Shown here in pieces: positions 4,630 to 41,836 of a DNA stretch of 64,000 bases. The notes under the pieces are model-generated. The model had not been told where the DNA came from and did not search any database. It saw only the letters and a list, made by a program, of their open reading frames with translations. This stretch comes from Chromatiales bacterium (lineage in GTDB: Bacteria > Pseudomonadota > Gammaproteobacteria > Steroidobacterales > GCA-2729495), in assembly GCA_016789885.1 (NCBI GenBank), contig JAEUPZ010000027.1, forward strand, positions 98 to 64,097. Reading direction: 5' to 3'. Numbering within the stretch: the stretch's first letter is position 1; the number at the start of each line of letters is the position of its first letter. The position numbers and the translations under genes are program-made.

Positions 4630-4657
4630 GACACCGGATGCCGGGGCAGCTGCCGCC

Positions 4658-5362: not shown

Positions 5363-5372
5363 GCGCATCCCC

Positions 5373-8111: not shown

Positions 8112-8146
8112 GCCGGCATTATGCCGGACGCCCGCGCGGCCTTGGC

Positions 8147-9763
8147 TCAGATCGTGCCGTTCACGATGGGCGCGAAGGCCGTCAGGCTGTCGCGCAGCTG
8201 CGTGTTGCCGAGGCCGTGCCCGGGGAACAGGCTCGCGAACTGGCCCTGCTGGCCGTGCAGCGCCAGGTAGTTGAGGATCACCGTCTCCACCAGCAGGTTG
8301 ACGTTGTTCGCCGCCGGCGAGCTCGAGGTTTCCACCGAGCCGTCGGGCCGGAACCAGCCGAGCTGCTGGCGCCGGGCCTGCTGCTCGGGCGTGCCGCCCA
8401 TGAGCTGGGGCCTGCCGCTGGGGCTGTAGACGAGGAAGAACGACGCGGCCGTGGCCTGGTTGTCGCTGGCCCACTCGCCCTTGCCGCGGCCGTTGATGGT
8501 GTTGTCGATGGCGCCGTCGCTCGACAGCGAGCCGTCGCTGAAGACGTAGAGCATCAGCGGCATGCCGACCCGGGCGGCGTACTCGAGGCAGGCGCCCATG
8601 CAGCGCCCGGCGCGGAAGTCGCGCATCTCGCCGACGGCACGGCGTCCGCCGTGGTAGTCGTAGCCGCCCATGGTCACGCAGCCGGCGCCGGCATAGCCGT
8701 TCAGCACCAGCTTCATCACCGAGGCGGTCTTGCGGAACTCGCCGTCACCGTCGTACTCCGCCTGGCTGAAGACGCCCGACGGACCGACGATCTGCGGGTC
8801 GAGGCTCGGGTTGAGCGACGACGGGTCGCCGAACCGGTCGGCGATGTCGGCGGACTTCAGGTAGCCGCAGCGGACGAGGTCCTTGACCACGGCGTCGCGG
8901 GTGATCATCGGCTTCTCGGGGTCGGGGAAGTTCAGCCCCGTCGAGACCGCGTCCAGCTTCATGCTGCTGAGGCGCTGGATCGACTCCATCACCGCGACGG
9001 CATCGTCCTGGCCCAGCAGTCCCACCAGCTGGCCGGTGTCGACCAGCCCCGTCACGTCGCTCGGCCGGTCGATCTTCGTCGGCCGCAGGTCGGGCCGGAT
9101 CAGCGACAGCGGCGCCATCGAGTTGCCGCCCGACTCGGAGTTCTGCGAGCCGATCAGCGTCAGCAGCGAGCCGAAGGAACCGGCCCGGGCGATGCCGTAC
9201 ATCGGGTTGTGCGGATTGTTGCCGGTGTCGTTCTCGGACCGCGCCGGTATGACGCAGCCGTTGATGCCGGCGGCGGTGCCCGCCGAGATCCGGTCCAGGA
9301 TGCCGCGCAGGAACGCGCTGTCGCTGTGGAACGCGAGCCCCAGCGTGTCGTCGACGTGGTCCTGGCCCGTGGTCGGGTCGATGACCGGCGGGATCATGTT
9401 GCCCGGCAGGCCGAGCCGGCTGTAGCCGGCGGTGCTGAGGAAGTCGCGCTGGCCGCCCTGGCCGCCCGTCAGCACGTTGGAGCCGGCCATGTTCGCGCCG
9501 CCCGCCAGGTCGAAGCAGATGAAGGGGATCTTGCCGGCGCCCTGTACGGAGATGCCGCAGGCGGTCTTCAGGGCCTCGAGGTCCGGGGCCAGGGCCGCGT
9601 GGGCCTGCCGCGGGCTCGCGAAGAGGCTCAGCACCCCGCCGCCGAAGACACTGGCGGCGCCGGTCATGAAGCCCTGAGAGATCAGCTGCCGACGCGTGAC
9701 CGGCCGCGGATGGTCCGGGTGGCGGAGGGGGCCGAAGTAGTCGGGGATGGTCTTGCGTGCCAT
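8147..9763 (-). CDS. Tat-exported protein, DUF1501/sulfatase-like (family assignment tentative)
   Basis: 538 aa. Twin-arginine signal TRRQLISQGFMTGAASVF...AHA. Motifs FICFDLAGGANMAGSN and TMGGYDYHGG resemble the metal-site motifs of DUF1501-type proteins. Confidence 0.7.
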   Translation of the reverse strand: MARKTIPDYFGPLRHPDHPRPVTRRQLISQGFMTGAASVFGGGVLSLFASPRQAHAALAPDLEALKTACGISVQGAGKIPFICFDLAGGANMAGSNVLTGGQGGQRDFLSTAGYSRLGLPGNMIPPVIDPTTGQDHVDDTLGLAFHSDSAFLRGILDRISAGTAAGINGCVIPARSENDTGNNPHNPMYGIARAGSFGSLLTLIGSQNSESGGNSMAPLSLIRPDLRPTKIDRPSDVTGLVDTGQLVGLLGQDDAVAVMESIQRLSSMKLDAVSTGLNFPDPEKPMITRDAVVKDLVRCGYLKSADIADRFGDPSSLNPSLDPQIVGPSGVFSQAEYDGDGEFRKTASVMKLVLNGYAGAGCVTMGGYDYHGGRRAVGEMRDFRAGRCMGACLEYAARVGMPLMLYVFSDGSLSSDGAIDNTINGRGKGEWASDNQATAASFFLVYSPSGRPQLMGGTPEQQARRQQLGWFRPDGSVETSSSPAANNVNLLVETVILNYLALHGQQGQFASLFPGHGLGNTQLRDSLTAFAPIVNGTI

Positions 9764-9786: not shown

Positions 9787-12279
9787 CTACTGCACCAGCA
9801 TGCCGGCGCTGCCGAGGGTCGCCGAGCAGACCGCCTTCGCGACGGTCCGCGTCCGGTCCGCGCTGCAGCCGGCGCCGCAGCTGGTGAGCCCGGTGATCAG
9901 GTTCTCCATCTCCAGCCGGACGTTGTCGATCTGCGGCTGGCTGGTGAGGCCGGTGCCCGGCGCGATGCCGTACACGCGGCTGAGCATCGGCAGCACGATG
10001 AGGTCGCGCTCGGCGCCCGTGTCGTAGGCCTGGGCCGCCGGCTGGCCGAAGTCGAAGCCCGGGAACACCTGCGCCCGCAGCGTCGCGTCGTCGACCATGA
10101 CGCTGCAGTACTCGATGGCCAGCTGCGCGATGCCGATCTGGTGTGAAGTCAGGAAGGCTTCGGGGTCCTCCACGGCCGGCAGGCTCTGCCGGACCAGCGC
10201 GTAGGTGGCGCGCACGTTCGGGTGCGTGACCGGCACGCCGGTGACCGTCGACATGGTGGCGTTGATCTCGTCGAAGAGCTTCACGCCGATGTCGGAGCGG
10301 GGCGAGCCCTCGGGCGGCGGCGGCGGGGACAGCGGCGCCGGCTCGGTGCGCACGTTGATGCTGGTGCCGAGCAGCTCGAAGGTCAGGAAGAACTCGTCGC
10401 CGTCCGGGCCCTTCTGCAGGGGCACGACGGTGCCCAGCGTCGACAGCAGCTGCTGGCGGGTCGCGGGGTCATAGCCCCTGGTGGTGCCGAGCGTCGTGTC
10501 GAGGTTCTGGTACGCCTGGCTGACCGGTACCTCGGCGCCGTCGATGCCGATGCGCAGGCCCTTCAGCGGTACCGCCGCCGGCACGTAGCCCTCGTCCAGG
10601 CTGACGAAGACCGGCCGGTCGAACAGGTACGCGTAGCTGTCGAGCTGGCTCACCGTGAAGAGGATGTAGCTGCCCGGGTTGCCCACGTGGGTGCTCACGT
10701 CGAAGAGCAGGTAGAACTTCTCGCCGACGCCGGCATCGAAGTTCTGCTGGATCTGCGTCGGCGTCAGCGCCCGGTCGTGGATCGCGACGAGGCGCAGCAC
10801 GCCCTGCCACTGGCGGTCGTTCGACGCCTCGTTGCCCAGCACCAGGGCGAAGGTGTCGTCCCAGTCGGCCAGCGTGCCGCCGGCGGCCGGGTCGCCGTCG
10901 CCGGTGTCGCTGCCGTTCACGTAGATGCGCCGGCCGTTCACCGGGTCGAAGGTCATGACGACGTGCTGCAGGGTCGCCTGGGCATCCTGGTCGGCGTCGG
11001 CGGTGCTGAGTCGCGGCGCGCCGTTGGCGTCGGTGTTCGAGCTGCGGCCCCAGGCGTCGTAGCTGTACATCGTCTGGCCGAGGGTGAAGTTCCGCAGGGT
11101 CGTCCCGGCGGAGTACGTGACGATCCGGGTGTTCTCCTGGTTTACGTTGGCGGGTGCCGCCCAGGCCTCGATGGTGTACTCGTTCGACGCCTTGATCCGG
11201 TCGTGCAGCTTGCGGCTCGCCGTGGTGGCGCCCTGGGCCTTGCCGCTGCGGATGTTGATGCCCCAGCCGCCGACCCAGGACACGTCGCCCGACAGCGTCA
11301 GGTTGATGGCCGGCTGCACGCCGCTGGTGTCGAAGGCCGTCGTGCCGGCGCCTTCCTTGAACTGCCACAGGGCGATCTGGCTGCCCTCGTAGCGGTTGCC
11401 GCCCGCGGCGACGATGCCGTCGTACATCGTCAGGGCCTTGCTGACCACGAGCGACGGGTCGACCTCGGTCACGGGCACCTGGGCCGCAAAGGCCGCGATG
11501 GCGTCGGTCATCTCGGTGGCGTTGCTCGTGCAGTCGCTCCAGCAGTTGTGGAACTCCTGGCCGAGGCGCGTGACGAACCGCGAGCTCGCCGGCGCGTCGA
11601 GGTTCATGCGCGTCCGCGCCGCGTCGTAGGCCGTGGCGACGTCGCCGTCGGCGAAGAAGGGCGACTGGCGCAGGGCCGAGCTCGAGCTGTGGCAGCCGGC
11701 GCAATAGTCGCGCACGACGGGGTAGACGGTCGCGGCGAAGAGTGCGGGGCTCTCCGGGTAGTTGCGGGTCGCGCCCACGTCGCGGCTCGGCGGCGGCTGC
11801 AGCAGGATCTGGCGCGTGCCGCCCTCGGCCGAGCCCGAGGACCAGGCCTCGATCCAGTTCGTCATGGTGTCGGCGCAGGCCTGCAGGCTGCCCGGCGTGC
11901 TGCCGAGCCAGCAGTTGTGGCCGCCCGCCACCTTGGTGACGAGCCGCGAGTTGCCGGGCTGCAGGTCGTCGAGCAGCGGCAGCGCGGCGGCGTAGGCGAG
12001 GTTCACGTCGTCGTCGCGGGCGAAGAGCGGCGACTGGCTGGCACCGTGGCAGGCGCCGCAGCCGGCGACGCCGCTGGCGCGCACGTTGGTCCAGATGTTC
12101 GTGGCGAAGGCCTGGGTCTCGGCCGTTGCCGGGGGCGGGCCCGAGTAGTTGGACGGGGGCGTGGTGTTGTTGGGCGGCAGGACCTCGGTGCCGGCGCCGC
12201 CGCCGCAGGCGGCGAGCACGGCCGCCGTGGCGACCAGCAGCAGGCGGGGGGCGAGGCGGATCATCGCAGTGGCGTTCAC
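9787..12279 (-). CDS. lipoprotein with two CxxCH motifs and a LamG-like domain
   Basis: 830 aa. Lipobox LAACGGG. A module is duplicated: CGACHG...GGHNCW and CAGCHS...EFHNCW. LamG-type signature WQGVLRLVAIHDRALTPTQIQQNF. The start may be the ATG 15 nt downstream (MIRLAP). Confidence 0.75.
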   Translation of the reverse strand: MNATAMIRLAPRLLLVATAAVLAACGGGAGTEVLPPNNTTPPSNYSGPPPATAETQAFATNIWTNVRASGVAGCGACHGASQSPLFARDDDVNLAYAAALPLLDDLQPGNSRLVTKVAGGHNCWLGSTPGSLQACADTMTNWIEAWSSGSAEGGTRQILLQPPPSRDVGATRNYPESPALFAATVYPVVRDYCAGCHSSSSALRQSPFFADGDVATAYDAARTRMNLDAPASSRFVTRLGQEFHNCWSDCTSNATEMTDAIAAFAAQVPVTEVDPSLVVSKALTMYDGIVAAGGNRYEGSQIALWQFKEGAGTTAFDTSGVQPAINLTLSGDVSWVGGWGINIRSGKAQGATTASRKLHDRIKASNEYTIEAWAAPANVNQENTRIVTYSAGTTLRNFTLGQTMYSYDAWGRSSNTDANGAPRLSTADADQDAQATLQHVVMTFDPVNGRRIYVNGSDTGDGDPAAGGTLADWDDTFALVLGNEASNDRQWQGVLRLVAIHDRALTPTQIQQNFDAGVGEKFYLLFDVSTHVGNPGSYILFTVSQLDSYAYLFDRPVFVSLDEGYVPAAVPLKGLRIGIDGAEVPVSQAYQNLDTTLGTTRGYDPATRQQLLSTLGTVVPLQKGPDGDEFFLTFELLGTSINVRTEPAPLSPPPPPEGSPRSDIGVKLFDEINATMSTVTGVPVTHPNVRATYALVRQSLPAVEDPEAFLTSHQIGIAQLAIEYCSVMVDDATLRAQVFPGFDFGQPAAQAYDTGAERDLIVLPMLSRVYGIAPGTGLTSQPQIDNVRLEMENLITGLTSCGAGCSADRTRTVAKAVCSATLGSAGMLVQ

Positions 12280-12293: not shown

Positions 12294-13511
12294 TCAGTTA
12301 CCCATGCAGTACGTGGCGGCCCGGGCGAAGACCTGCTTCAGCCGGTAGCCGTCGCTGCGGAACGCGGCCGAGCTGCTGGCCACGTGGCTGCGGTCCGCCG
12401 TGCTCGTGGGCGGGCGCAGGCAGACGTTGCGGAACACCTTCTCGACCTGGCAGCTGGCGAAGGCCTGGCTGTTGGCCAGCTCCTGGCCCATGCTCGCGGC
12501 CCCCGAGCCGCTGCCGGGCAGGGACGGGTCCCAGCCGAGCAGCGCGTTCTGGCCGGCGCGCCAGTAGTTCGCCCAGCTGTCGTCCGGGGTGCGGTAGCCC
12601 TGGATGAACGTCTGGTCGTTGTTGTAGTACTTCGGGTGCACCGCGCCGGCGCTGTACACCAGCCGCCCGAGCACGGGGTCGAAGTTGTAGTAGGCAAAGG
12701 CCTGGGTCAGCGGATCCATGCCGCTGTGGCAGCCGATGCAGTTGTTCAGGAAGATGCGGCTGTCGCCGCCGGGGCTGCGTGACACGTCCTGGCGGATCCG
12801 GTCCGGCGCGCGGGTGATGTCGAGCACCTGCTCCAGGTCGCGGCACATGTGGTTCAGCAGCGTGAAGCGGAACATCGCGCGGTTGGTGCCGGCGATGAAG
12901 AACGCCTCGGCGGCCGCCCGCGTCGTGAAGATGCCGGCCGGGGCGCCGGCCGGGTAGCCGTAGGCCGCCGTCTGGGTCGTGCGGACCAGGGCCTGCTTCA
13001 GGTTGACGCCGTTCTGCTCCAGCGCGGCGTAGTGGTCGTTGTTCGACGCCGAGACCGCCGGCACGCCGGCGCCCGAGCCGACGTACAGGATGTCGTCCGA
13101 CAGTACGCTGTTGAACGGCACGTCGTCGCGCACCATGCCGATGACGGTGGCGGTGTAGTCGTTGAGCGGGGCGAAGGCGTTGAAGTCCCGGTTCGTCCAC
13201 GGCGTCGCGAAGTTCTTCAGCGACACCGAGTAGAAGTTCGGGTTCTCCATGGCGGTGGCGGCCGCCTGCTCGGCGTTGCCGCCGCCGATCTGCGCCTCCA
13301 TCGTGGCCAGCACCGCCTCGCTCGGCGGCACGCCGGCCAGGCGCTCGTGCATGCGCCGCGCCTGCTCGCGCGGTCCGGCAGCGGCCGTGCCCGCAGCGGC
13401 GAGCGCGGCGACCATGACGACGGCGAAGCGGTGTGCAGCCTGCCCGGCTGCGCGCGCACGCCGACCTGTCGAAGCGACGGCGCCCTGCCGTCCCTGCAGC
13501 GTCGTAACCAC
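12294..13511 (-). CDS. secreted CxxCH protein, DUF1588/DUF1592-like
   Basis: 405-aa ORF. The motif CIGCHSGMDPLTQAFAYYNFD resembles the C..CH...DP.G.a.E.fD signature of planctomycete-type DUF1588 proteins. The exact start is uncertain and may be the internal Met before VAALAAAG. Confidence 0.65.
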   Translation of the reverse strand: MVTTLQGRQGAVASTGRRARAAGQAAHRFAVVMVAALAAAGTAAAGPREQARRMHERLAGVPPSEAVLATMEAQIGGGNAEQAAATAMENPNFYSVSLKNFATPWTNRDFNAFAPLNDYTATVIGMVRDDVPFNSVLSDDILYVGSGAGVPAVSASNNDHYAALEQNGVNLKQALVRTTQTAAYGYPAGAPAGIFTTRAAAEAFFIAGTNRAMFRFTLLNHMCRDLEQVLDITRAPDRIRQDVSRSPGGDSRIFLNNCIGCHSGMDPLTQAFAYYNFDPVLGRLVYSAGAVHPKYYNNDQTFIQGYRTPDDSWANYWRAGQNALLGWDPSLPGSGSGAASMGQELANSQAFASCQVEKVFRNVCLRPPTSTADRSHVASSSAAFRSDGYRLKQVFARAATYCMGN

Positions 13512-13662
13512 GTTGTGCCCATCCCCGAAAGGTGGCGCCTTGCGCGCCGGGAGGCATTAGGCGTTGGCGTGGCCCCGGCCTTCTGTGACTGCGTTAACGG
13601 TTCGCGGAAAACCCTGTGTATTACGTTAGCTGCCGAGCCGGGGGGCGCACTGATCGGATCAG

Positions 13663-16332
13663 ATGCGGCGCACCTCGGATGGGCAAGCGGGGATCATGAT
13701 GGCTGCAGGAATGCAGGCGCGCACGTGGGCACGTGCGCTGATCGCGGGCTGCGCCGTGGCCTCAGGCATGGCCGGCTGCGGGGGCGGTGGCGTGGGCGGC
13801 GGCCAGGACCCGGATCCCGTGGTGCTGGACGTGCCCATTGCCTACGTGCGCCGGCCGCTGGCCGTGAACAACAACGGTACCCTCGTGGCATCCGACGTCC
13901 GCGTGCAGCGGGCGTTCAACCCCGGCGCCGAGCTCTTCGTGCGCGAGCGGGCAGCCGTCGGTGGCGCCGAGATCAATGTCACCGGCCGCATCACCGGCGG
14001 GTCCGGACTCTACGACATCCGCGACGTCGAGCCGTCCTTCGACGGCACGCGGCTGCTGTTTGCCATGCGCGGCCCGTTCATCCCCGGCGCCAATGCCGAC
14101 CAGCAGCCGCCCTGGGACATCTGGGAGTACGACATCGGCAGCGACACGCTGCGCCGGGTCATCGCGTCGGACATCACGGCCGCCACCGGCCACGACGTCG
14201 CGCCCCACTACCTGCCCGACGGACGCATCATCTTCTCCTCGACCCGCCAGCGCACCGCCAAGGCCGTGCTGCTCGACGAGGGCCGTCCGCAGTTCGATGC
14301 CCTGAACGAGGCCCGGGCCGAGCCCGCCTTCGTGCTGCACGTCATGAACGCCGACGGCAGCGACATCCGCCAGGTGTCGTTCAACCGCAGCCACGACCTT
14401 GATCCGACGGTGCTGTCGAACGGCCAGGTGCTGTTCACGCGCTGGGACAACGCGGGCTCGGTCAATGCCATGCACCTGTACCGCATGAACCCGGACGGCA
14501 CCGGCCTCGAGCTGTACTACGGCCGCAACAGCCACGCCACCGGGACGAACGGGGCCACCGTGCAGTTCCTGCAGCCCCGCGAGATGCAGGACGGCCGCAT
14601 CCTCGTGGTGCTGCGGCCCTTCCAGGTCACGGACCAGGGCGGCGACCTCGTCCGCATCGACGGCGGGAACTACCTCGAGAACCTTCAGCCGACGGCCCCG
14701 AACGTCGGCATCCTCGCGGGCCCCGCCCAGGAGCGCGCCGTCATCAACGACGTGCGGACGGACGCGCTGGTGTCCCCGGGCGGCAAGTTCAGCGCCGCCT
14801 TCCCGCTGCTCGACGGCACCGACCGCCTGTTCGTGAGCTGGAGCCCGTGCCGCCTGCAGGATCCGGTGGCTGGCACCATCCTGGCCTGCACCGTGGCAAA
14901 CCTCGCGAATCCCGCGCTCGTGGCGGCGCCGCCGCTCTACGGTCTCTGGGTCTACGACCGCCGCGAGAATACGCAGATCCCGGTCTTCACGCCGGTCGAG
15001 GGCGTCGTCTACACCGACGTCGTCGCCGCCCAGCCGCGCCCGGCGCCGCCGGTCATCTTCGACCAGGAGGCCACCGGCAGCGTCGACCCGCAACTCGCCG
15101 ACGAGAACGTCGGCCTCATCGACATCCGCAGCGTCTACGATGTCAACGGCGTCGCGAACCGGAACATCGCCAGTACGGCGAACCCGGCCCTGACGCTGGC
15201 GGCGGCACGCCCGGCCCGCTTCCTGCGGCTCGAGAAGGCCGTGGCGATACCGCCGCGCACGGTGCGGAACATCGCCAACACCGCCTTCGGCGTGTCTACG
15301 ACCCAGGGCATGCGCGAGATCCTCGGCTACGTGCCGATCGAGCCCGACGGCTCGGTGGTCGCGAAGGTGCCGGCCAACGTGCCCTTCGCCGTCTCGGTGC
15401 TCGACGCCAACGGGCGCCGCACGACGCCGCGCCACCAGAACTGGCTTCAGCTGCGCCCGGGACAGGTGCTCACCTGCAATGGCTGCCACGCGCCCAACGG
15501 GCAGCGGTCCCACGGCAGGCAGGCGGCCTACAACAGCGCCTGGGCCGGAGCCCAGGCCGACGGCCAGCCGTTCCCTAATACCGTCGGCACGTTCTTCGCG
15601 GACTTCGGCGAGACCATGGCCCAGGCCAAGCGGCGCATCAGCTGCGCGACGGACTGCGCCCTCGTCACCCCGTCCGTCGACGTCGTCTACGAGGACATCT
15701 GGACGGACCCGGCGGCCGCCGGCCGGGCGCCGGACGCCGCCTTCAGCTATGCCTACGCCGACCTGCAGACGCCGGCCCCCACCAGCGCTGGCTGCCTGCA
15801 GCAGTGGGACGCCAACTGCCGCATCACCATCAACTACGAGACCCACATCCACCCCCTCTGGTCGCTGCCCCGGCAGCTGCTCGACGCCGATGGCGTCACG
15901 GTGCTCCAGGACAACACCTGCACGGCCTGCCACTCGCCGACCGACGCCATGGGCATGGCGCAGGTACCCGCGGGCCAGCTCGACCTGTCGGACGGCCCGT
16001 CGGACATCAACGCGGCCCACTTCAAGTCCTACCGTGAACTGCTGTCGGCGGACAACGAACAGGTCCTCAACGAGGGCGCCCTGCAGGACCGCTTGGTGGA
16101 GGTCGGTATCGACGAGGTCACCGGTGCCCCGATCTTTGCGACGGTCGGCGTCCCGGCCTCGCTGTCGACGGCCGGCGCCAACAGCACGGCGTCGGCCCGG
16201 TTCTTCAGCCGCTTCGCGCCGGGCGGCTCCCACGCCGGACGGCTGTCGCCCGCCGAGCTCCGTCTCGTCGCCGAGTGGGTCGACCTCGGCGCGCAGTACT
16301 TCAACAACCCCTTCGACGCCCCGGCGAACTGA
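13663..16332 (+). CDS. TolB-like beta-propeller lipoprotein with two C-terminal CxxCH motifs (HzsA-related-like)
   Basis: 889 aa. Lipobox MAGCGGG. Repeated propeller strings (PHYLPDGRIIFSSTRQ, PTVLSNGQVLFTRWD). CNGCHAPNGQRSHG and CTACHSPTD near the C-terminus. Ends LVAEWVDLGAQYFNNPF. Confidence 0.75.
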   Translation: MRRTSDGQAGIMMAAGMQARTWARALIAGCAVASGMAGCGGGGVGGGQDPDPVVLDVPIAYVRRPLAVNNNGTLVASDVRVQRAFNPGAELFVRERAAVGGAEINVTGRITGGSGLYDIRDVEPSFDGTRLLFAMRGPFIPGANADQQPPWDIWEYDIGSDTLRRVIASDITAATGHDVAPHYLPDGRIIFSSTRQRTAKAVLLDEGRPQFDALNEARAEPAFVLHVMNADGSDIRQVSFNRSHDLDPTVLSNGQVLFTRWDNAGSVNAMHLYRMNPDGTGLELYYGRNSHATGTNGATVQFLQPREMQDGRILVVLRPFQVTDQGGDLVRIDGGNYLENLQPTAPNVGILAGPAQERAVINDVRTDALVSPGGKFSAAFPLLDGTDRLFVSWSPCRLQDPVAGTILACTVANLANPALVAAPPLYGLWVYDRRENTQIPVFTPVEGVVYTDVVAAQPRPAPPVIFDQEATGSVDPQLADENVGLIDIRSVYDVNGVANRNIASTANPALTLAAARPARFLRLEKAVAIPPRTVRNIANTAFGVSTTQGMREILGYVPIEPDGSVVAKVPANVPFAVSVLDANGRRTTPRHQNWLQLRPGQVLTCNGCHAPNGQRSHGRQAAYNSAWAGAQADGQPFPNTVGTFFADFGETMAQAKRRISCATDCALVTPSVDVVYEDIWTDPAAAGRAPDAAFSYAYADLQTPAPTSAGCLQQWDANCRITINYETHIHPLWSLPRQLLDADGVTVLQDNTCTACHSPTDAMGMAQVPAGQLDLSDGPSDINAAHFKSYRELLSADNEQVLNEGALQDRLVEVGIDEVTGAPIFATVGVPASLSTAGANSTASARFFSRFAPGGSHAGRLSPAELRLVAEWVDLGAQYFNNPFDAPAN

Positions 16333-16335
16333 CCC

Positions 16336-17073
16336 ATGGCCCGATTCCTCGCACTGCTGATGGTTTTCGTGGGCCTGGTCACACCGGCTTATGGCAAGGC
16401 GCGCCACTATCAGGCCGTCGTCGCCGACCCCTTCGTCGAGCTCCGGACCGGCCCGGGGCAGGGCTACCCGGTCGTCCAGGTGGTTGACCGCGGCCAGACC
16501 ATCGAGGTGGAGAAGCGGCGGACCGACTGGTTCCGGGTGCGGACCGACCGGGGCTTTGCCGGCTGGGTGCGGGTGGACCAGCTCGAGCGGACGCTGAACG
16601 GCGCCGGGGCGCTGACCGAGATCGTCGATCCCGACGAGGCCGACTTCGCCGGCCGGAGGTTCGAGCTCGGCGTGCAGCTCGGCGACTTCGGCGGGGCGAG
16701 CTCGCTGGGCGTCTACGGGGCGTGGCACCTGAACCGGCACGTGGCGACGGAGCTGCGCTTCGCCGACATCAGCGGCAGCTTCTCCGACGGCTGGCTGGCG
16801 GTGGCCGACCTCGTCATGCAGCCGTTCCCGGAGTGGCGGCTGTCGCCGTTCGTGGCGCTGGGCACCGGCGTGCTGCGCACGGAGCCGAAGGCGACGCTGG
16901 TGCAGACCGAGGACCGCACGGACCAGGTGGGGCACGTCGGCATCGGCCTGCGGGCGCACCTGACCAAGCGGCTGCTGCTGCGCGGCGAGTACAGCAGCTA
17001 CCTGGCATTTACGAGCCGCGACGACAACGAGGAAGTCGACGAATGGAAAGCCGGATTCGCATTCTTCTTCTGA
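16336..17073 (+). CDS. SH3b-domain + outer-membrane beta-barrel protein
   Basis: Signal peptide. SH3b-like segment VELRTGPGQGYPVVQVVDRGQTIEVEKRRTDWFRVRTDRGFAGWV. Alternating beta-strand C-terminal half ending GFAFFF. Starts 3 nt after the previous gene. Confidence 0.75.
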   Translation: MARFLALLMVFVGLVTPAYGKARHYQAVVADPFVELRTGPGQGYPVVQVVDRGQTIEVEKRRTDWFRVRTDRGFAGWVRVDQLERTLNGAGALTEIVDPDEADFAGRRFELGVQLGDFGGASSLGVYGAWHLNRHVATELRFADISGSFSDGWLAVADLVMQPFPEWRLSPFVALGTGVLRTEPKATLVQTEDRTDQVGHVGIGLRAHLTKRLLLRGEYSSYLAFTSRDDNEEVDEWKAGFAFFF

Positions 17074-17726
17074 GCGCCGTGCTGGCGGCGGCCGGCCTCG
17101 CGTCCGGCTGCAGCCTGCTGCCCGGCCGTGGCGCGGACGCGCCGCCGCCGGCGACGGCAGCCGACGCCGGCGAAGCCCCGGTCATCGATCCCGTCGTGGA
17201 GCGCCGCGAGGTCAAGGCCGCCGACATCGACACCGAGGACTTCCAGATCGGCGCCCACGTCGGCCAGATCAACGTCGAGGACTTCGGCAGCACGCTGGTG
17301 GTCGCGTTCCGCGGCACCTACAACATCAGCGAGCGGTTCTTCCTCGACGCGACCTATGCCCAGACCGACGACGTCGACCGTACCAGCGCCGAGACGCTGA
17401 ACAACATCGACCTGCTCGGGGGCGACCGCCAGTACAAGTACTACAACGTCGCCATCGGCTGGAACGTGCTGCCCGGCGAGATCTTCCTCGGCAAGGGACG
17501 CGCCATGAACTCGGCGCTCTACGTCGTGGCGGGCGCCGGCAACACCACCTTCGGCGGCGACGACTGGTTCACGACCACCGTCGGCGGCGGGTTCCGCGTG
17601 CTGCCGGTGGACTTCATCGCGGTGAACCTCGACGTGCGCAACCACATGTTCGACTTCGACCGCACCGGCGAGGACAAGTCGACCAACAACCTCGAGTACA
17701 CCCTGGGCTTCAGCTGGTTCTTCTGA
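17043..17726 (+). CDS. outer-membrane beta-barrel lipoprotein
   Basis: Start MESRIRILLLSAVLAAAGLASGC (lipobox), overlapping the previous gene by 31 nt. Beta-barrel-like sequence ending TLGFSWFF. Confidence 0.7.
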   Translation: MESRIRILLLSAVLAAAGLASGCSLLPGRGADAPPPATAADAGEAPVIDPVVERREVKAADIDTEDFQIGAHVGQINVEDFGSTLVVAFRGTYNISERFFLDATYAQTDDVDRTSAETLNNIDLLGGDRQYKYYNVAIGWNVLPGEIFLGKGRAMNSALYVVAGAGNTTFGGDDWFTTTVGGGFRVLPVDFIAVNLDVRNHMFDFDRTGEDKSTNNLEYTLGFSWFF

Positions 17727-17733
17727 GGGCGCC

Positions 17734-18297
17734 ATGCAGCAGGCAGCAGACCAACACCGTCCCTTCCGCCGGGCCCTGGCCGGCATCACCGGCCTCGCCG
17801 GCAGCCTGGTCGCCGCGGCGGCCCTGCTGGCCGTGCCGGGCATCTTCGCGACGAGCCACGCGAGCGGCGCCGCGGGCCCCGCGCCCCAGTTCACCCTCGA
17901 ACAGCGGGGCGGCGGGTCCGTGTCGCTGGCCGACCTCAAGGGGAAGGTCGTGCTCGTCAACTTCTGGGCGACCTGGTGCGGCCCGTGCCGCAAGGAGATG
18001 CCGCTCCTCGAGCAGATCCACCGCAAGTACGCGCCGCTGGGCCTCGTCATGGTGGGCGTCAACGTCGAGGAGGACGGGCGCCTGTTCGACACGTTCCTGA
18101 AGGACGTCCCGGTCAGCTTCCCGATCCTGCTCGACCCGAAGAACGGCGTCAGCAAGCTCTACGACGTGGCGGCCATGCCGAGCACGGTCATCATCGACCG
18201 CAAGGGCAACATCCGCTACGTGCACCAGGGCTACCAGCCCGGTGACGAGAACGCGTACCAGGACATGGTCCGGACGCTGATCCGGGAGCGCACGTGA
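17734..18297 (+). CDS. TlpA-family periplasmic thiol:disulfide oxidoreductase
   Basis: 187 aa with a membrane anchor or signal. Thioredoxin fold with active site WATWCGPCRKEMP. Confidence 0.9.
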   Translation: MQQAADQHRPFRRALAGITGLAGSLVAAAALLAVPGIFATSHASGAAGPAPQFTLEQRGGGSVSLADLKGKVVLVNFWATWCGPCRKEMPLLEQIHRKYAPLGLVMVGVNVEEDGRLFDTFLKDVPVSFPILLDPKNGVSKLYDVAAMPSTVIIDRKGNIRYVHQGYQPGDENAYQDMVRTLIRERT

Positions 18298-18521
18298 ACG
18301 CGCGCGCGGCCACTGCCATCGTCGCCGCCGCGCTGCTGCTGGCCGGCTGCTCGGGGGTCGAGCCCTGGGTCAAGCCCTACGAGCGCGACCGGCTGGCCGA
18401 TCCCATCATGAGCTTCGACCGGAACCCCGTGTCGACCTCGTACATGGACCACGTCCGCGAGGCCCGCGAGGGCGCGCGGGGCGCCGCCGGCAGTTCCGGC
18501 GGCGGCTGCGGCTGCAATTGA
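18294..18521 (+). CDS. DUF4266 lipoprotein
   Basis: 75 aa. GTG start overlaps the TlpA stop (GTGA). Lipobox LLAGCSG. Characteristic C-terminus GGGCGCN. Confidence 0.8.
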   Translation: MNARAATAIVAAALLLAGCSGVEPWVKPYERDRLADPIMSFDRNPVSTSYMDHVREAREGARGAAGSSGGGCGCN

Positions 18522-18537
18522 ACTGACGGGTACAGCC

Positions 18538-19674
18538 ATGGAACGGCGCCGTGCATCGCTGCTGTTGATCTCCGCCCTGGCCCTGACGGGGCAGGCGGCC
18601 GTCGGCGGTACGCTGCCGGAAGAGCGCATGGACGCGCTCTACCACTTCTATTCCGGCGACAACGTCGAGATCGACGGCCCGTCGCTGCTGGTGCGCAAGA
18701 ACGTCGGCCAGAGCGTGTCGGTGTCCGGCAGCTACTACGTCGACTCCATCACCAGTGCCTCCGTCGACGTGGTCACCACGGCCAGCAAGTACTCCGAGGA
18801 ACGCACCCAGTGGGGTGCCGGCATCGACTACCTGCATGGCGACACGACGATGAGCGTCGGCTTCAGCAACAGCGAGGAGAACGACTACAGCGCCGACACC
18901 ATCAACTTCGGCATCTCCCAGGAGGTGTTCGGCGGGCTGACCACCATCTCCATGGGCTACGGCAGCGGCAGCGACGAGGTCCGCCGCCGCGGCGACGACG
19001 CTTTCCAGGACACTGTCGACAAGAAGGCCTACCGGCTGGGCGTCTCCCAGGTGCTGACCCGGAACTGGGTCGTGGGCCTCGCCTTCGAGACCATCGCCGA
19101 CGAGGGCTTCCTCAACAACCCGTACCGCAGCGTGCGCTACCTCGACGGCGCGGGCGGCTTTGCCTTCCAGGCCGAGCGCTACCCGCGCACCCGGGCCAGC
19201 AACGCCGCGGCCGTGCGCTCGCGCTACCACCTGCCCTGGCGGGCGGCGGTGGCCGCCGAGTACCGCTTCTTCACCGACGACTGGGGCATCGACGCCCACA
19301 CGCTGGAGCTGGGCTACACGCAGCCGCGCGGGCGCCTGACCTTCGACCTGCGCTACCGCTACTACACGCAGGGCAGCGCCGACTTCTACAGTGACCTGTT
19401 CCCCTACCAGGACGCCCAGAACTTCCTGGCCCGGGACAAGGAGCTGGCGACCTTCCAGAGCCACGGCCCGCACGTCGGGGTCACGTACACGCTGTTCGAC
19501 CGTACCAGCGACACGCGGGCGCTGCGCGGCTCGGCGAGCCTCTTCTACGACTACATCTTCTTCAACTACGACGACTTCCGCGACCTGCGGGTGACGGGCG
19601 TACAGCCTGGCACGGAGCCGTTCTTCTCCTTCAACGCCAGCGTCGTCCAGGCGTTCTTCTCCCTCTGGTTCTGA
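18538..19674 (+). CDS. DUF3570 protein (predicted outer-membrane beta-barrel)
   Basis: 378 aa with a signal peptide. N-terminal YHFYSGDNVEIDGPSLLVRK, alternating-strand body, terminal aromatic SLWF. Confidence 0.75.
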   Translation: MERRRASLLLISALALTGQAAVGGTLPEERMDALYHFYSGDNVEIDGPSLLVRKNVGQSVSVSGSYYVDSITSASVDVVTTASKYSEERTQWGAGIDYLHGDTTMSVGFSNSEENDYSADTINFGISQEVFGGLTTISMGYGSGSDEVRRRGDDAFQDTVDKKAYRLGVSQVLTRNWVVGLAFETIADEGFLNNPYRSVRYLDGAGGFAFQAERYPRTRASNAAAVRSRYHLPWRAAVAAEYRFFTDDWGIDAHTLELGYTQPRGRLTFDLRYRYYTQGSADFYSDLFPYQDAQNFLARDKELATFQSHGPHVGVTYTLFDRTSDTRALRGSASLFYDYIFFNYDDFRDLRVTGVQPGTEPFFSFNASVVQAFFSLWF

Positions 19675-19691
19675 CCCGCGGCGCGCGCCCG

Positions 19692-20660
19692 ATGCAGCGT
19701 CTCGCCCTCGCCGCACTGCTCATGTTGACCGCCGCCCTCCCGGCCCGGGCCGGGTGGTTCGGCGACGTGCAGCAGAAGATGGGCACCCGGGTCGAGATCC
19801 AGCTGTGGCACGACGACCCCGCCGAGGCAAAGCGCCTGCTGGCCGCCGGCATGGCCGAGCTCGACCGCATCGAGCAGGCCATGAGCACCTACCGCGAATC
19901 GTCCGAGATCTCCGCGGTCAACCGGCTCGCCGCCGACGGGCCCGTGCCGGTGTCGGCCGAGCTCGGGGAGCTGGTGGCTCTGTCGCTGGAGCTGTCGGCG
20001 CGCAGTGGCGGCGCCTTCGACATCACCTTTGACAGCGTCGGCAAGCACTACGAGTTCCGCAGCCGCCTGCGACCCGACGACGCGACCATCGCGCGGGACC
20101 TCCCGGCCATCGACTACCGCCACGTCGAGGTGGCCCCGGACGGGCGCTCGATCCGCTTCACGCGCCCCGGTACCCGCATCAACCTCGGCGGCATCGCCAA
20201 GGGCTACGCCTGCGAGCGCGTGATCGCGCTGCTCGAGGCGGCGGGTGTGCGCCACGCGCTCGCCAACGCCGGCGGCGACACGCGCTTCCTCGGCGACCGC
20301 CGTGGCCAGCCCTGGCTCGTCGGCATCCGCGACCCGGACGACGCCGGCCGCGTCGTCACGCGCCTCGCGCTCGATGACGAGGCGGTCTCCACGTCGGGCG
20401 ACTACGAGCGCTACTTCGACGAGGACGGCGTGCGCTACCACCACATCCTGAATCCCGGCACGGGCCGCCCGGCCGAAGGCGTCCGCAGCGTCACGGTCAT
20501 CGGGCCGGACGCCACGCTGACCGACGGCCTGTCGACCAGCGTCTTCATCCTCGGCGCAGACGCGGGGATCCGGCTCATCGAGGCGATGCCGGGCTACGAG
20601 GCGGTGGTGGTCGACAGCGCCCGGGGCGTGCGGTTCTCGAAGGGGCTGCAGCCGCGCTGA
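19692..20660 (+). CDS. apbE: FAD:protein FMN transferase ApbE
   Basis: 322 aa with a signal peptide. ApbE motifs: MGTRVEI, FDITF, NLGGIAKGYA, STSGDYERYF. Confidence 0.9.
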   Translation: MQRLALAALLMLTAALPARAGWFGDVQQKMGTRVEIQLWHDDPAEAKRLLAAGMAELDRIEQAMSTYRESSEISAVNRLAADGPVPVSAELGELVALSLELSARSGGAFDITFDSVGKHYEFRSRLRPDDATIARDLPAIDYRHVEVAPDGRSIRFTRPGTRINLGGIAKGYACERVIALLEAAGVRHALANAGGDTRFLGDRRGQPWLVGIRDPDDAGRVVTRLALDDEAVSTSGDYERYFDEDGVRYHHILNPGTGRPAEGVRSVTVIGPDATLTDGLSTSVFILGADAGIRLIEAMPGYEAVVVDSARGVRFSKGLQPR

Positions 20661-20990
20661 TGGCGGCGTGACATAAGCGGGAAATGCCCGGCGGCGCGGG
20701 CGACGATCGTGAACGACGTCGCAGGAAACGCCGGGCCGAGTTGTCAGGATTACGTCGTCCCCGGGGTGCTGGCACGGGCAAATGCCTGCCTCCCGCGGCG
20801 ACTGACTACGGCAAACCCGTCGCGAGGCGGGGACGCAAAGCCTCCGGTCCGCTGCCCGATGGGCGCGCGGCGGACAGCGGGGTTGCCGGGCGCGCGCACG
20901 CGTCGTCCGTGAGTCCCTGTCCCCACGCGGGCCTGCCGGTATCCGGAGCCCCGGTGCGCAGCCGCGCCCGCGGCTGGTTGTGGCGCGGCG

Positions 20991-21536
20991 GTGATGGGGA
21001 TGTCGATGGCAGCACGGTCGGAACAGCGCGGGCAGCAGGGCAGGGCAGCCGCTGCGCGCGTCATGGCCGTCGCCCTCGGCGCAGTCCTGGCGGCGGGGGC
21101 CGCCACGGCGGCCGACCTGCCGTCCGCGCCCGACTTCGCCCTCAGGTCCGTCAGTGGCCAGAACCTGCGGCTGTCGGAGTACCGCGGCCAGCCGGTGCTG
21201 CTCACCTTCTGGGCCGACTGGTGCGGCACCTGCCAGGCGCAACTCGCCGAGCTCGCCGACCTGGGCCGCCGCTACGCCGGGCAGGACGTGGCCGTCCTCG
21301 CCGTGAACATCGACGGTGCCGACCGGCGCGAGGCGGCCAACACCACCGCCAGCCGCCTCGGACTGACCGTGCTCCGGGACGACGCCCAGGCCGTCGCCCG
21401 GGCCTACGACCTCGGCACGTTGCCGGTGACCCTGCTGGTGGACCCCGACGGCCGCATCCGCGGCACCTGGGAACGCTACCGCCCGGGGACGACCGGCGAG
21501 CTCGAGGCCGAGCTCGCGCGCCTGATGGCCGAGTAG
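20991..21536 (+). CDS. TlpA/redoxin-family thioredoxin-like protein (second copy)
   Basis: Active site WADWCGTCQAQ. Signal peptide MAVALGAVLAAGAATAA. The true start may be the ATG at 21063. Confidence 0.8.
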   Translation: MMGMSMAARSEQRGQQGRAAAARVMAVALGAVLAAGAATAADLPSAPDFALRSVSGQNLRLSEYRGQPVLLTFWADWCGTCQAQLAELADLGRRYAGQDVAVLAVNIDGADRREAANTTASRLGLTVLRDDAQAVARAYDLGTLPVTLLVDPDGRIRGTWERYRPGTTGELEAELARLMAE

Positions 21537-21574
21537 CCGATCCAGCCGAACAACCCTGTTACGGGAACCACGCC

Positions 21575-22177
21575 ATGCGCACCCGACCCGCGAACTTCCT
21601 GCCGCTGCTGCTGGCGGCCGCCGTGCTCGCCCTGCCGCTGACCGGCGGGGCCGACGAGGCGCCGGCCCCCGCCGTCGCGCCGTCCGCCGCCGACGCGACG
21701 CTTGCCGCCGTGACCGCCGGTGACGCGCCGGCCGGCGCCCTCGACACCGAGATGCAGGCCCTCAAGGACGAGGTGCTCGACCTCAACCAGGAGCTCTTCC
21801 TGCTCGAGGAGGAGCTGCTGTTCCCGGCCAACACCCAGGTCGCCGTGTTCGTGTCGATGGACGTCGGCGAGTTCTTCGCCCTCGACTCGGTGCAGTTGCG
21901 CATCGACGACAAGCCCGTGGGCAACTACCTGTACACCGAGCGCGAGGTGCAGGCCCTGCTGCGGGGCGGTGTCCATCGCTTCTACCTGGGCAACCTCAAG
22001 GCCGGCACCCACGAGCTGACGGCCACCTTCACCGGCAAGGGCCCCCACGAGCGCGACTACCGCCGGGGCGCGACGCTGAAGATCGAGAAGGGCATCGGCG
22101 CCAAGTTCGTCGAGCTGCGCATCTCCGACCGGGTCAGCAAGCTGCAGCCCGAGTTCGTCGTCCGCGAGTGGGAGTAG
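21575..22177 (+). CDS. secreted coiled-coil protein, function unknown
   Basis: Internal ATG (MRTRPANFLPLLLAAAVLALPLTGGA) of ORF 20684..22177. Coiled-coil EMQALKDEVLDLNQELFLLEEELLFP followed by a beta-rich domain. Confidence 0.65.
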   Translation: MRTRPANFLPLLLAAAVLALPLTGGADEAPAPAVAPSAADATLAAVTAGDAPAGALDTEMQALKDEVLDLNQELFLLEEELLFPANTQVAVFVSMDVGEFFALDSVQLRIDDKPVGNYLYTEREVQALLRGGVHRFYLGNLKAGTHELTATFTGKGPHERDYRRGATLKIEKGIGAKFVELRISDRVSKLQPEFVVREWE

Positions 22178-22180
22178 GCG

Positions 22181-26931: not shown

Positions 26932-27532
26932 GCGGCGGTTCGCCGTGGTGGCGCTGGCCCTGGCCCTCGGGGGCTGCGCCCTCGGTGGCGGCAAGGAGCC
27001 GGCGCCGGTGGCCGACGTCGTGCCGCCGGCCTTCACCACGCGCTACGACGCCGCCATCGCGCGGGTCGCGGCCGGCGACGACGCCGCCGCGGCGGCCGAG
27101 TTCCGGGCGCTGGTCCGCGCGTACCCCGCGTACGCGGGCCCCGCGCTCAATCTCGCGCTGATCGAGGCCCGCGCCGGGCGCGACGCCACGGCGCTCGCCT
27201 GGCTCGGTGGCGCGGCGAAGACCTGCAGCCGCTGCGGCGCCGTCTGGACCGAGGCCGGCGTCATCCACCGCAAGGCCGGCCGGCTGAAGGACGCCGAGGC
27301 CGCCTACCAGCGGTCCATCGAGCTCGAGGCGGGCTACGGCCTCGCCTACTACAACCTGGCGGTGCTCTACGACCTGTACCTGCAGCGCCCGGAGCTCGCC
27401 CTCGAAACCTACCGCCGCTACCAGGCCGCCTCTCCCGAGGCGCCGCTGAACGCGTCGGTGAGCCAGTGGGTCACCGACCTCGAACGCCGGGTCGCCAGCG
27501 CCGCGGCCGCGCGCACGAAGGAGGGCACATGA
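26909..27532 (+). CDS. TPR lipoprotein (207 aa)
   Basis: Start MSRPGSTERRFAVVALALALGGC (lipobox) with GGAAAGGAG upstream; overlaps the previous gene by 23 nt. TPR helices: AGVIHRKAGRLKDAEAAYQRSIELEAGYGLAYYNLAVLY. Confidence 0.75.
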   Translation: MSRPGSTERRFAVVALALALGGCALGGGKEPAPVADVVPPAFTTRYDAAIARVAAGDDAAAAAEFRALVRAYPAYAGPALNLALIEARAGRDATALAWLGGAAKTCSRCGAVWTEAGVIHRKAGRLKDAEAAYQRSIELEAGYGLAYYNLAVLYDLYLQRPELALETYRRYQAASPEAPLNASVSQWVTDLERRVASAAAARTKEGT

Positions 27533-27927: not shown

Positions 27928-28020
27928 TGACGACCATGGCTCCCGCGGGCAGCGGGCAGCCGGACTGGCGGCCACCACGCCGTCGACCACACAGGGCTTG
28001 GCCTAAGGGGCAATCGGGCA

Positions 28021-28740: not shown

Positions 28741-28775
28741 GCCAGGCCCGGCCTGCCGCCCCGGGGCAGACTGCC

Positions 28776-29818: not shown

Positions 29819-29830
29819 GGACCCTCACCG

Positions 29831-41760: not shown

Positions 41761-41836
<76 letters not shown>

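Follow-up and report, generated by a model that had tools for sequence, protein, structure and literature searches.

In the 64,000-nucleotide stretch of a Chromatiales genome analyzed here (contig JAEUPZ010000027.1; the window), the segment at positions 13663-20660 is occupied by seven real, co-directional genes for exported proteins, which we call g1 to g7. The first three, all on the + strand like the rest, encode an HzsA-like di-haem lipoprotein predicted to reside in the outer membrane (g1, 13663..16332); a small outer-membrane beta-barrel with a signal peptide, an SH3b domain, and the C terminus FFF (g2, 16336..17073); and a second small outer-membrane beta-barrel, of OMP_myx_plus type, which is a lipoprotein in this genome (g3, 17043..17726). 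These are followed by a membrane-anchored TlpA/ResA-like thioredoxin with a WCGPC motif (g4, 17734..18297), a DUF4266 lipoprotein with the C terminus GGGCGCN (g5, 18294..18521), a DUF3570 protein predicted to form an 18-strand outer-membrane beta-barrel (g6, 18538..19674), and ApbE, the periplasmic flavin adenine dinucleotide (FAD):protein flavin mononucleotide (FMN) transferase (g7, 19692..20660).

The junctions between the seven genes measure +3, -31, +7, -4, +16, and +17 nt. The GC content at third codon positions (GC3) is 0.93-0.96 in each gene, in a genome of ~70% GC, so that all seven are coding and their frames true. Every product carries an N-terminal signal peptide, a lipobox or, in g4, a membrane anchor, and all three barrel proteins (g2, g3, and g6) end in Phe. 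Proteins of the window were assigned to families with Pfam and NCBIfam models. A preliminary description of this DNA, made from its letters, had listed seven co-directional genes for exported proteins with these junctions, domains, and motifs, and the coordinates, GC3, and family models bear it out; the profile searches that it suggested matched DUF4266, DUF3570, and the HZS_alpha domain. Its count of two outer-membrane barrels becomes three, as DUF3570 is itself a barrel. A scan of 13300-22300 for promoters and terminators detected none, the inverted repeats in both intergenic gaps were uninformative, and a search for a regulatory RNA 5' of g1 gave none.

We compared this gene order across relatives of g1, a family with 4336 cluster representatives (50% identity) at an E value of <=1e-3 and 616 at <=1e-30. 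One set of 80 loci came from contigs representing one genome per species, through an alignment led by g1 that matched at least 588 species; another 80 came from metagenome contigs, through an alignment led by the most distant representative. Jointly, the two sets span g1 identities of 38-71% and GC contents of 38-71%. Where at least 4.5 kb of sequence follows g1, the genes for g2, g3, DUF4266, and DUF3570 are each present, in 102/102 loci. Wherever g1, g2, g3, g5, and g6 were all found, they are colinear on one strand (122/122 loci). The identities of the neighbors correlate with that of g1 (r of 0.54-0.86), the exception being the near-invariant u3 (r of 0.34), a gene on the other side of g1 that is described below. 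Two look-ups started from DUF3570 returned the same synteny as those started from g1. Taken together, these data strongly support the conclusion that g1, g2, g3, g5, and g6 are inherited together.

The preliminary description had joined the genes in one module; the linkage in 102/102 loci supports a conserved functional unit and not chance neighbors. The seven genes that it joined are not the conserved core. Of the 102 loci, 79 contain TlpA (g4), and among the 80 whose downstream flank reaches 9 kb or more, ApbE (g7) is near the cluster in 40, so the locus need not encode either of them; at the same time, a divergent haem/twin-arginine (Tat) operon is as conserved as the barrels (91/93 loci). 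In a Chromatiales metagenome-assembled genome (CP070671.1; locus L165, 9225-12374), two small open reading frames (ORFs) and genes for Peptidase_M48 and LemA stand between DUF3570 and ApbE, a four-gene insertion that shows how loosely ApbE is tied to the core.

The named carriers are all Gammaproteobacteria, from several orders. They include Woeseiaceae, Steroidobacteraceae, Nevskiaceae, Lentisalinibacter, Sedimenticolaceae, and Alkalilimnicola, as well as a tubeworm symbiont, Pseudomonadales, Colwellia, Paraglaciecola, and Reinekea. The few carrier labels outside this class look like binning noise.

The flavin cassette also occurs without g1. A Hymenobacter plasmid carries genes for a thioredoxin, ApbE, DUF4266, and DUF3570, and Vibrio aquimaris carries genes for TlpA, DUF4266, DUF3570, and ApbE with an adjacent DsbD (E value of 6e-173). 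The plasmid collection yielded only six weak DUF3570 matches, which served as comparators for the stand-alone cassette. The DUF3570 of the Hymenobacter plasmid is annotated as two neighboring coding sequences, a possible frameshift. In both Hymenobacter and Vibrio, a thioredoxin-like gene accompanies DUF4266/DUF3570 and no g1 homologue or cytochrome gene was noted near the cassette; we therefore infer that g4 serves the DUF4266/DUF3570 pair and not cytochrome maturation. The picture suggested by these gene orders is of a mobile flavin cassette whose partners differ by lineage and which, in one large gammaproteobacterial lineage, is fixed to an HzsA-fold protein. That the clustered genes form one functional system is, in our judgment, very likely.

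The sixth protein, g6, matches DUF3570 (PF12094, 1e-40) and is only ~30% identical, over ~40% of its length, to the DUF3570 proteins of Hymenobacter and Vibrio. Its AlphaFold2 model is a closed barrel with a mean predicted local distance difference test (pLDDT) score of 84 and a predicted template modeling (pTM) score of 0.80. The top PDB fold matches of this model are all outer-membrane barrels, with template modeling (TM) scores of ~0.5 to the 18-strand AlgE and OccD/OprD, and the strand count of the model from the C-terminal Phe is likewise 18. On one side of the modeled barrel, all turns have <=5 residues, and the long loops (residues 73-85, 279-305, and 349-361) all lie on the opposite side. 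In outer-membrane proteins, the side bearing the long loops is as a rule the extracellular one, and by this rule the three loops of g6 are predicted to be extracellular.

Two flavinylation-type motifs stand in tandem in the long loop that connects strands 3 and 4 of g6: DSITSAS (residues 69-75) and DVVTTAS (residues 77-83), of which A74, S75, A82, and S83 are invariant. The double motif of DUF3570, which all orthologues share, and the ending of DUF4266 are kept even in loci with no ApbE or TlpA nearby. The neighboring g7 matches ApbE (PF02424, 5e-83). In Chlorobium luteolum, DUF3570 has been shown experimentally to be flavinylated by its ApbE at two [S/T]GA[S/T] motifs, and the flavinylated substrate in that experiment ended up insoluble (PMC8238504). 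Flavinylation of an insoluble substrate fits an ApbE that acts on a linear motif of the unfolded precursor. Model and motifs together strongly support g6 as a predicted outer-membrane barrel of ~18 strands that carries two tandem flavinylation motifs and belongs to a family of proven ApbE substrates.

The two thiol proteins are encoded immediately upstream. g5 matches DUF4266 (PF14086, 6e-23) and has the lipobox LLAGC; in the mature protein of 57 residues, the N-terminal half is conserved and the tail, rich in Gly and Ser, ends GGGCGCN. This ending is the C terminus of 127 of the 128 complete DUF4266 orthologues. The DUF4266 proteins of the Hymenobacter plasmid (L003, 8136-8330) and of Vibrio aquimaris (L004, 7875-8348), one of them 157 residues long, also end in GGGCGCN. 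As it is present in another phylum and another order, the tail is a family-wide signature of DUF4266 and not a trait of this lineage. The C-terminal CXC of DUF4266 was previously pointed out by Méheust et al. (PMC8238504). We consider it strongly supported by these alignments that g5 is a small lipoprotein with a probably flexible tail and an almost invariant GGGCGCN.

Its partner g4 matches Redoxin (2e-29) and carries a thioredoxin fold, a WCGPC motif that is kept in 93/106 orthologues, and an N-terminal membrane anchor. Against NCBIfam, its scores for ResA (116.7 bits; cut-off, 170), TlpA (75.4; cut-off, 230), and DsbE (65.9; cut-off, 123) all lie below the family cut-offs, which places g4, by sequence, in a putative subfamily related to but separate from these three.

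The largest protein of the run, g1, matches the HZS_alpha middle domain (PF18582, 4e-14) and, weakly, PD40. Its two haem-attachment motifs are CNGCH (residue 605) and CTACH (residue 753). For its AlphaFold2 model (pLDDT of 89.9, pTM of 0.87), the top PDB fold match found with Foldseek is HzsA (5c2v_A; E value of 2.8e-26, TM scores of 0.53/0.61, 944 columns, 14% identity), and the fold match to TolB is restricted to the N-terminal propeller. A sequence search of the PDB with g1 recovered HzsA as three colinear segments. The architecture is HzsA-like: a TolB-like N-terminal beta-propeller, a middle domain with CNGCH, and a C-terminal one bearing CTACH. In alignments with relatives that are 36-70% identical, the lipobox Cys (C39), C605, C608, C753, C756, and H757 are invariant, as are both CxxCH motifs and several additional Cys and His residues. 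Together, the model and these alignments strongly support g1 as a lipoprotein predicted to have the full HzsA fold, with two conserved c-haem sites.

This fold does not make g1 a hydrazine synthase (HZS). Its match to the HzsA equivalog model of NCBIfam (NF052339) covers one 66-residue stretch and reaches 46.9 bits, below the cut-off of 800 bits, and no genes for the HZS beta (propeller) and gamma (di-haem peroxidase-like) subunits adjoin g1. On these grounds, we rejected g1 as a hydrazine synthase member. By ungapped extension, the residue at +4 after the first CxxCH is Gly (CNGCHAPNG); the HMMER alignment ends three residues past the motif His. In HzsA, Tyr591 is the proximal ligand of haem alpha-I, and the CxxCH His is bound to Zn. 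A gap has been reported in the region equivalent to HzsA Tyr591 in non-anammox homologues (PMC12758564). The same 2025 survey of HzsA homologues places them in Planctomycetota and Desulfobacterota, beside beta-gamma-like and FG-GAP genes, and reports that the non-anammox homologues lack key catalytic residues and that the function of none has been confirmed (PMC12758564).

Between g1 and the thiol proteins lie the two small barrels. g2 matches SH3_3 (7e-11), OMP_b-brl (4e-5), and, weakly, TIGR04565, and its last residue is F in 140/148 orthologues. g3 matches TIGR04565 (OMP_myx_plus) strongly (6e-41) and has the lipobox LASGC in this genome; only 61/136 orthologues have a lipobox. A pairwise comparison of g2 with g3 found no significant similarity, their common feature being the TIGR04565 match. 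Read in a second frame, the last ten codons of g2 are also the opening ten codons of g3. This overlap is exactly 31 nt in 110/110 loci, which argues for tight translational coupling. We consider it strongly supported that g2 and g3 are small outer-membrane barrels, as predicted by these family matches, and a translationally coupled pair.

Upstream of g1, the divergent operon comprises u1 to u3, in this orientation in the 91 of 93 loci noted above. Its first gene, u1 (12294..13511, - strand), encodes a secreted mono-haem c protein with the motif CIGCH. The GC3 of this frame is 0.96, the PSD2 match is weak (4e-4; the PSD2, PSCyt2, and PSCyt3 matches are all below Pfam cut-offs), and a single CxxCH is present in 124/124 orthologues. 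An ATG-initiated ORF at 12298-13557 (- strand) was considered for u1 and ruled out by GC3 as a wrong-frame shadow with an Arg/Gly/Pro-rich product. The shadow ORF still gave 33-54% tblastn identity in relatives, a caution for the reading of ORFs in high-GC DNA. The second gene, u2 (9787..12279, - strand), encodes a lipoprotein with CGACH at residue 74, CAGCH at residue 193, and a LamG (concanavalin-like) domain (Laminin_G_3, 3e-20); both CxxCH motifs are present in 104/104 orthologues.

The third gene, u3 (8147..9763, - strand), encodes a 538-residue protein of an orphan family with the Tat signal TRRQLI. No protein of the region is more conserved (median identity, 67%), and the Tat motif is found in 87/95 orthologues. 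Searches of Pfam, NCBIfam, and PDB sequences with the single sequence and with a 9-sequence profile (E values up to 10) gave no match. u3 is probably cofactor bearing. Its GGYDYH motif is reminiscent of GGWDTH, which we take to be a DUF1501 motif; u3 matches neither DUF1501 nor DUF1552 at E values up to 10. In Planctomycetota, PSCyt/PSD cytochrome-like proteins are reportedly paired with Tat-exported DUF1501/DUF1552 proteins. Here, too, a gene with weak matches of this kind (u1) and a haem lipoprotein gene (u2) are followed by that for a Tat protein of ~540 residues; as u1 is below the Pfam cut-offs and u3 is not DUF1501/DUF1552, the likeness is a lead and not membership. Beyond u3 lies u4 (6732..8120, - strand; start approximate), which encodes a methyltransferase-like protein with a Cys-rich N-terminal segment, matches Methyltransf_11/25 weakly, and is present in 34/93 loci.

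By sequence motifs, the conserved region thus holds five c-haem sites, two FMN sites, and the CGC and CGPC thiol pairs, along with three predicted outer-membrane barrels and one predicted Tat-exported protein. The preliminary description had proposed a module of haem, flavin, and thiol chemistry with its own outer-membrane components. The invariant CxxCH motifs, the WCGPC and CGC motifs, and the membership of g6 in a family shown to be an ApbE substrate (PMC8238504) all agree with it.

Downstream of ApbE, a c-di-GMP-I-GGC riboswitch aptamer (20801..20891, + strand; RF03167) sits in the 330-nt gap before a second TlpA gene. The match is full length, with 61.8 bits (gathering score, 59) and an E value of 3.6e-12. 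The aptamer is at the same place in four close relatives (L002, 16995-17092; L005, 16947-17039; L006, 16904-17002; L014, 17501-17591), and none was found at the gathering score in seven more distant loci. Its position argues that the seven-gene unit ends at 20660, where the preliminary description had placed its end, and that the downstream block is under separate control. The window has another riboswitch from this clan (c-di-GMP-I, RF01051; 46327-46439, + strand; 47.8 bits), upstream of an ORF at 46492-47532.

The block downstream of the aptamer, all on the + strand, begins with g8 (20991..21536), the second TlpA-like thioredoxin, and g9 (21575..22177), a secreted protein of 200 residues that fits no known family. 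Of 80 loci, 46 have g9, and over the C-terminal 150 residues its identity reaches 85% in relatives whose neighboring genes are 48-72% identical. Next come three tetratricopeptide repeat (TPR) proteins (22181-24091; 24088-26931, with a YbgF-like part; and 26909-27532, a lipoprotein) and a secreted 132-residue protein (27529-27927). An ExbB/TolQ-like protein (28021-28740; MotA_ExbB, 1e-24), two ExbD-like proteins (28776-29309 and 29306-29818; ExbD, 3e-15 and 1e-17), and a TonB-like protein (29831-30787) complete the block; the last has an AgmX/PglI-type C-terminal domain (NF033768, 1.6e-18, 66.6 bits; cut-off, 40). From its family matches, the 22181-30787 block looks like a Tol/Ton-like energizer linked to the redox cluster. 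The block from g8 to the TonB-like gene accompanies the cluster in about half of loci, and g9, the TPR genes, ExbBD, and the TonB-like gene stay linked in L079 and L082 despite having moved to the cluster's opposite side. An assignment of this block to an Agl/Glt gliding core was considered and set aside, since its support ends with the C-terminal domain of the TonB-like protein (AgmX/PglI, of the myxobacterial gliding GltG type): the GltG match is confined to that end, and the TPR proteins match no Glt model.

Several features lie in the flanks. These are a TonB-dependent receptor (197-2260, - strand), a Ysc84-family protein (3314-4219, - strand), a tRNA (41761-41833, + strand), and response-regulator/histidine-kinase pairs at 4502-6746 and 35534-37680 (both + strand). 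In L005 and L006, the pair at 4502-6746 likewise adjoins the cluster; in L002, the neighbor is a similar pair accompanied by a PepSY gene. The family of red chlorophyll catabolite reductases (PF06405) is matched at 5.6e-10 by an ORF at 33825-34649 (+ strand), which is unexpected in a genome that looks gammaproteobacterial.

We propose, tentatively and with a confidence somewhat short of even, that g1-g7 form one arm of a redox system, conserved in the envelope of Gammaproteobacteria and centered on a flavin-bearing outer-membrane barrel, in which a reductive relay would run from TlpA to the DUF4266 CGC, on to FMN, and then to c-haems. In such a system, ApbE (g7) would attach FMN to two Ser residues of the unfolded g6 precursor in the periplasm, with insertion into the outer membrane to follow. 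Na+-NQR and RNF require housekeeping ApbE, and a housekeeping copy could likewise serve the loci that have no local apbE. Reducing power from the cytoplasm would pass through a DsbD/CcdA-type protein encoded elsewhere to the WCGPC of g4, which would reduce the CGC tail of the outer-membrane lipoprotein g5; this tail could then reach the FMNs on g6 in the manner of a swinging arm. The FMNs would turn two-electron thiol chemistry into one-electron steps, handing electrons to the c-haems of g1 and possibly of u1 and u2. The haem proteins g1, u1, and u2 and the Tat-exported u3 would perform the terminal reaction at or beyond the outer membrane, while g2 and g3 may serve the complex as an anchor or scaffold in the outer membrane and, via the SH3b domain of g2, on peptidoglycan. 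The reductive direction is suggested by the WCGPC of g4, by the DsbD gene adjacent in Vibrio, and by the DsbD proposal of Méheust et al. A thiol-flavin-haem order would be thermodynamically downhill in this direction.

Several observations weigh against this relay. Of 102 loci, 23 lack TlpA, and of 80, 40 lack ApbE; no DsbD or CcdA gene was found in the window, where DsbD was sought among the annotated ORFs of 197-40787. The motifs of g6 read TSAS and TTAS, with Ser or Thr at the Gly position of the canonical SGA[ST]; the SGAS form of the DUF3570 motif is seen in relatives. The FMN loop of g6 is predicted to be extracellular, with a pLDDT of <50, and g5 and g1 have no known surface-export signal and so would face the periplasm by default, opposite that loop; the loop may instead fold into the barrel lumen. 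Finally, a contact between g6 and g1 is suggested by synteny alone.

A more far-reaching version of the reductive relay is possible but unlikely, in our estimate. DUF3570 and the CGC-tailed lipoprotein DUF4266 might constitute a new class of electron conduit across the outer membrane, in which FMNs bound covalently to one loop of the 18-strand barrel take the place of haems threaded through a porin. In a large group of marine, sediment, and soil Gammaproteobacteria, the conduit would be hard-wired to an HzsA-fold di-haem enzyme and a Tat-exported orphan enzyme, in an undescribed extracytoplasmic redox pathway driven by thiol reductant from the cytoplasm.

Among the alternatives, one that we also consider unlikely is reductive nutrient acquisition, with the DUF3570 barrel mainly as an uptake channel, the flavin and haem proteins reducing a metal species such as Fe(III) at the outer membrane to allow its import, and the ExbB/ExbD/TonB-like block as the energizer. 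The fold of g6 resembles the substrate channels AlgE and OccD, the linkage of g9, TPR, ExbBD, and TonB-like genes persists even after rearrangement, and the idea is compatible with a published VIT1 link and with the Ton-like block itself. However, the conserved core showed no iron transporter, siderophore gene, or Fur-type signal, and the TonB-dependent receptor at 197-2260 lies outside the conserved neighborhood. The ExbBD block, moreover, accompanies only about half of loci and stands here behind a predicted c-di-GMP-type riboswitch and not an iron signal.

The same chain might instead run in the oxidizing direction, from the thiols of envelope or secreted client proteins, or from small thiols, through the DUF4266 CGC and the barrel FMN to c-haems, with the respiratory chain or oxygen as the final acceptor, in the manner of Mia40-Erv1-cytochrome c; we regard this as rather improbable. 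The mitochondrial relay has the same order of CXC, flavin, and c-haem, and disulfides of CXC motifs are oxidizing by comparison. The absence of TlpA from 23/102 loci indicates that a dedicated local reductant gene is dispensable, and no DsbD gene was found among the annotated ORFs of 197-40787, both of which would suit an oxidizing relay. What speaks for reduction is that the strongly reducing WCGPC is present in 93/106 g4 orthologues and that DsbD adjoins the cassette in Vibrio and in 227 published clusters (PMC8238504).

It is improbable, too, that g4, possibly with DUF4266, is a CcmG/ResA-like maturation helper that keeps the CxxCH motifs of the five local c-haem sites reduced. Those five sites are indeed encoded nearby, and the best NCBIfam matches of g4 are to ResA, TlpA, StoA, and DsbE, reductants for the maturation of cytochromes and copper centers. 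These matches are all far below the family cut-offs, however, and Woeseiaceae-type loci retain the cytochromes without the thioredoxin. Conversely, the trio of thioredoxin, DUF4266, and DUF3570 is found in Hymenobacter and Vibrio with no g1 homologue or cytochrome gene noted nearby, and it is a published recurring unit (PMC8238504).

That g1 is a nitrogen-cycle enzyme with HZS alpha-like hydroxylamine/ammonia chemistry, to which the other proteins are accessory, is very improbable. Full-length fold similarity to HzsA favors it, but the identity is 14%, the score is 46.9 bits against an 800-bit cut-off, no beta or gamma homologue adjoins, and by ungapped extension the position at +4 after the first CxxCH (CNGCHAPNG) is not Tyr. 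The carriers are ordinary aerobic or facultative Gammaproteobacteria, and non-anammox homologues lack the key catalytic residues (PMC12758564). A fortuitous adjacency of the propeller and barrels to the flavinylation cassette, an idea encouraged by the cassette standing alone in other phyla and genera, has a negligible probability and is refuted by 102/102 linkage, 122/122 colinearity, and 110/110 overlap across identities of 38-71% and GC contents of 38-71%.

The flavin cassette itself has been described before. Méheust et al. (2021, eLife) reported clusters of ApbE, DUF3570, DUF4266, and thioredoxin-like genes, 227 with DsbD and 316 without, and proposed a hybrid thioredoxin/flavin system fed by DsbD whose function they call "uncertain"; barrel, propeller, and porin are nowhere mentioned in that paper (PMC8238504). 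Haft (2023, bioRxiv) noted DUF4266/DUF3570/TlpA beside a JDVT-CTERM surface protein in a few species, and a 2024 mSystems follow-up does not treat DUF3570. The survey of HzsA homologues, for its part, leaves DUF3570 unmentioned (PMC12758564). In the searchable literature, we found no paper that joins flavinylation or ApbE with an outer-membrane beta-barrel, and the link of the cassette to an HzsA-like protein is not described there. The preliminary description had supposed that neither the quartet nor its link to an HzsA-related propeller has an assigned function; this stands for the link and, as far as physiological function is concerned, for the quartet, which as a gene cluster was already on record (PMC8238504). 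Relative to the searchable literature, the co-inheritance of the HzsA-fold lipoprotein, the small barrels, DUF4266, and DUF3570 is new, and so are the predicted barrel nature of DUF3570 and the extension of the unit by the divergent operon and, in this lineage, the riboswitch-led downstream block.

With this locus and its more than 160 relatives, a widespread extracytosolic electron-transfer module, the flavinylated DUF3570 system, published without a known function, gains as fixed partners an HzsA-fold di-haem lipoprotein, two small barrels, two more cytochromes, and a Tat-exported enzyme, and the many non-anammox HzsA homologues gain a defined genomic context. The reading of DUF3570 as a flavin-bearing barrel, together with this partner set, turns "function uncertain" into testable hypotheses. 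Genetics should be feasible, since strains of Lentisalinibacter among the carriers have been cultured and the carrier genera Colwellia, Paraglaciecola, and Reinekea have representatives in culture. Woeseiaceae are abundant in marine sediments, and with them among the carriers the pathway could be of ecological importance. Should flavins borne by an outer-membrane barrel indeed carry electrons across or at the outer membrane, the mechanism would be distinct from that of porin-cytochrome conduits.

Comparison with known systems places the cluster more precisely. Like HzsA, g1 combines a propeller with a middle domain corresponding to haem alpha-I and a C-terminal domain corresponding to haem alpha-II, each haem domain with a CxxCH. 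It differs in its 14% identity, its lipoprotein anchor, and the lack of Tyr at the Tyr591-equivalent position (by ungapped extension), and its partners are outer-membrane barrels and a flavin cassette, with none of the beta/gamma or FG-GAP neighbors reported for the homologues of Planctomycetota and Desulfobacterota. The published DUF3570 clusters of Méheust et al. contain the same four families, including a DUF3570 with two tandem motifs and a DUF4266 with a C-terminal CXC, and the lack of a local DsbD here is shared with 316 of the 543 published clusters. In our loci, however, the cassette lies within a larger conserved unit, with an HzsA-fold lipoprotein, two small barrels, and a divergent haem/Tat operon, that is unmentioned there. 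ApbE and the thioredoxin are here the least conserved neighbors, g4 matches Redoxin/AhpC-TSA whereas PF13899 was reported there, and the g6 motifs are TSAS/TTAS in place of [S/T]GA[S/T].

Two further comparisons are functional. MtrCAB-type porin-cytochrome conduits consist of a ~26-strand barrel with a deca-haem cytochrome threaded through it. In our cluster, too, a barrel is encoded with c-type cytochromes, both lipoprotein and periplasmic, an arrangement that by analogy suggests electron movement at or through the outer membrane. The barrel here has ~18 strands, no protein of the region has more than two CxxCH motifs, and a flavin on the barrel and a thiol arm would take the place of the haem wire, so the analogy is one of function only. 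Yeast Erv2p uses a C-terminal CGC arm to pass electrons to its flavin site, and Mia40 (CPC)-Erv1 (FAD)-cytochrome c and flavocytochrome c sulfide dehydrogenase are working thiol-flavin-haem chains. With these relays, our cluster has no kinship in sequence or fold: the flavin here would be phosphoester-linked FMN on a barrel, against FAD in the helical Erv fold, and the direction is likely reductive. What they appear to have in common is the order of a flexible CXC, a flavin, and a c-type haem, with the flavin as the converter between two-electron and one-electron chemistry.

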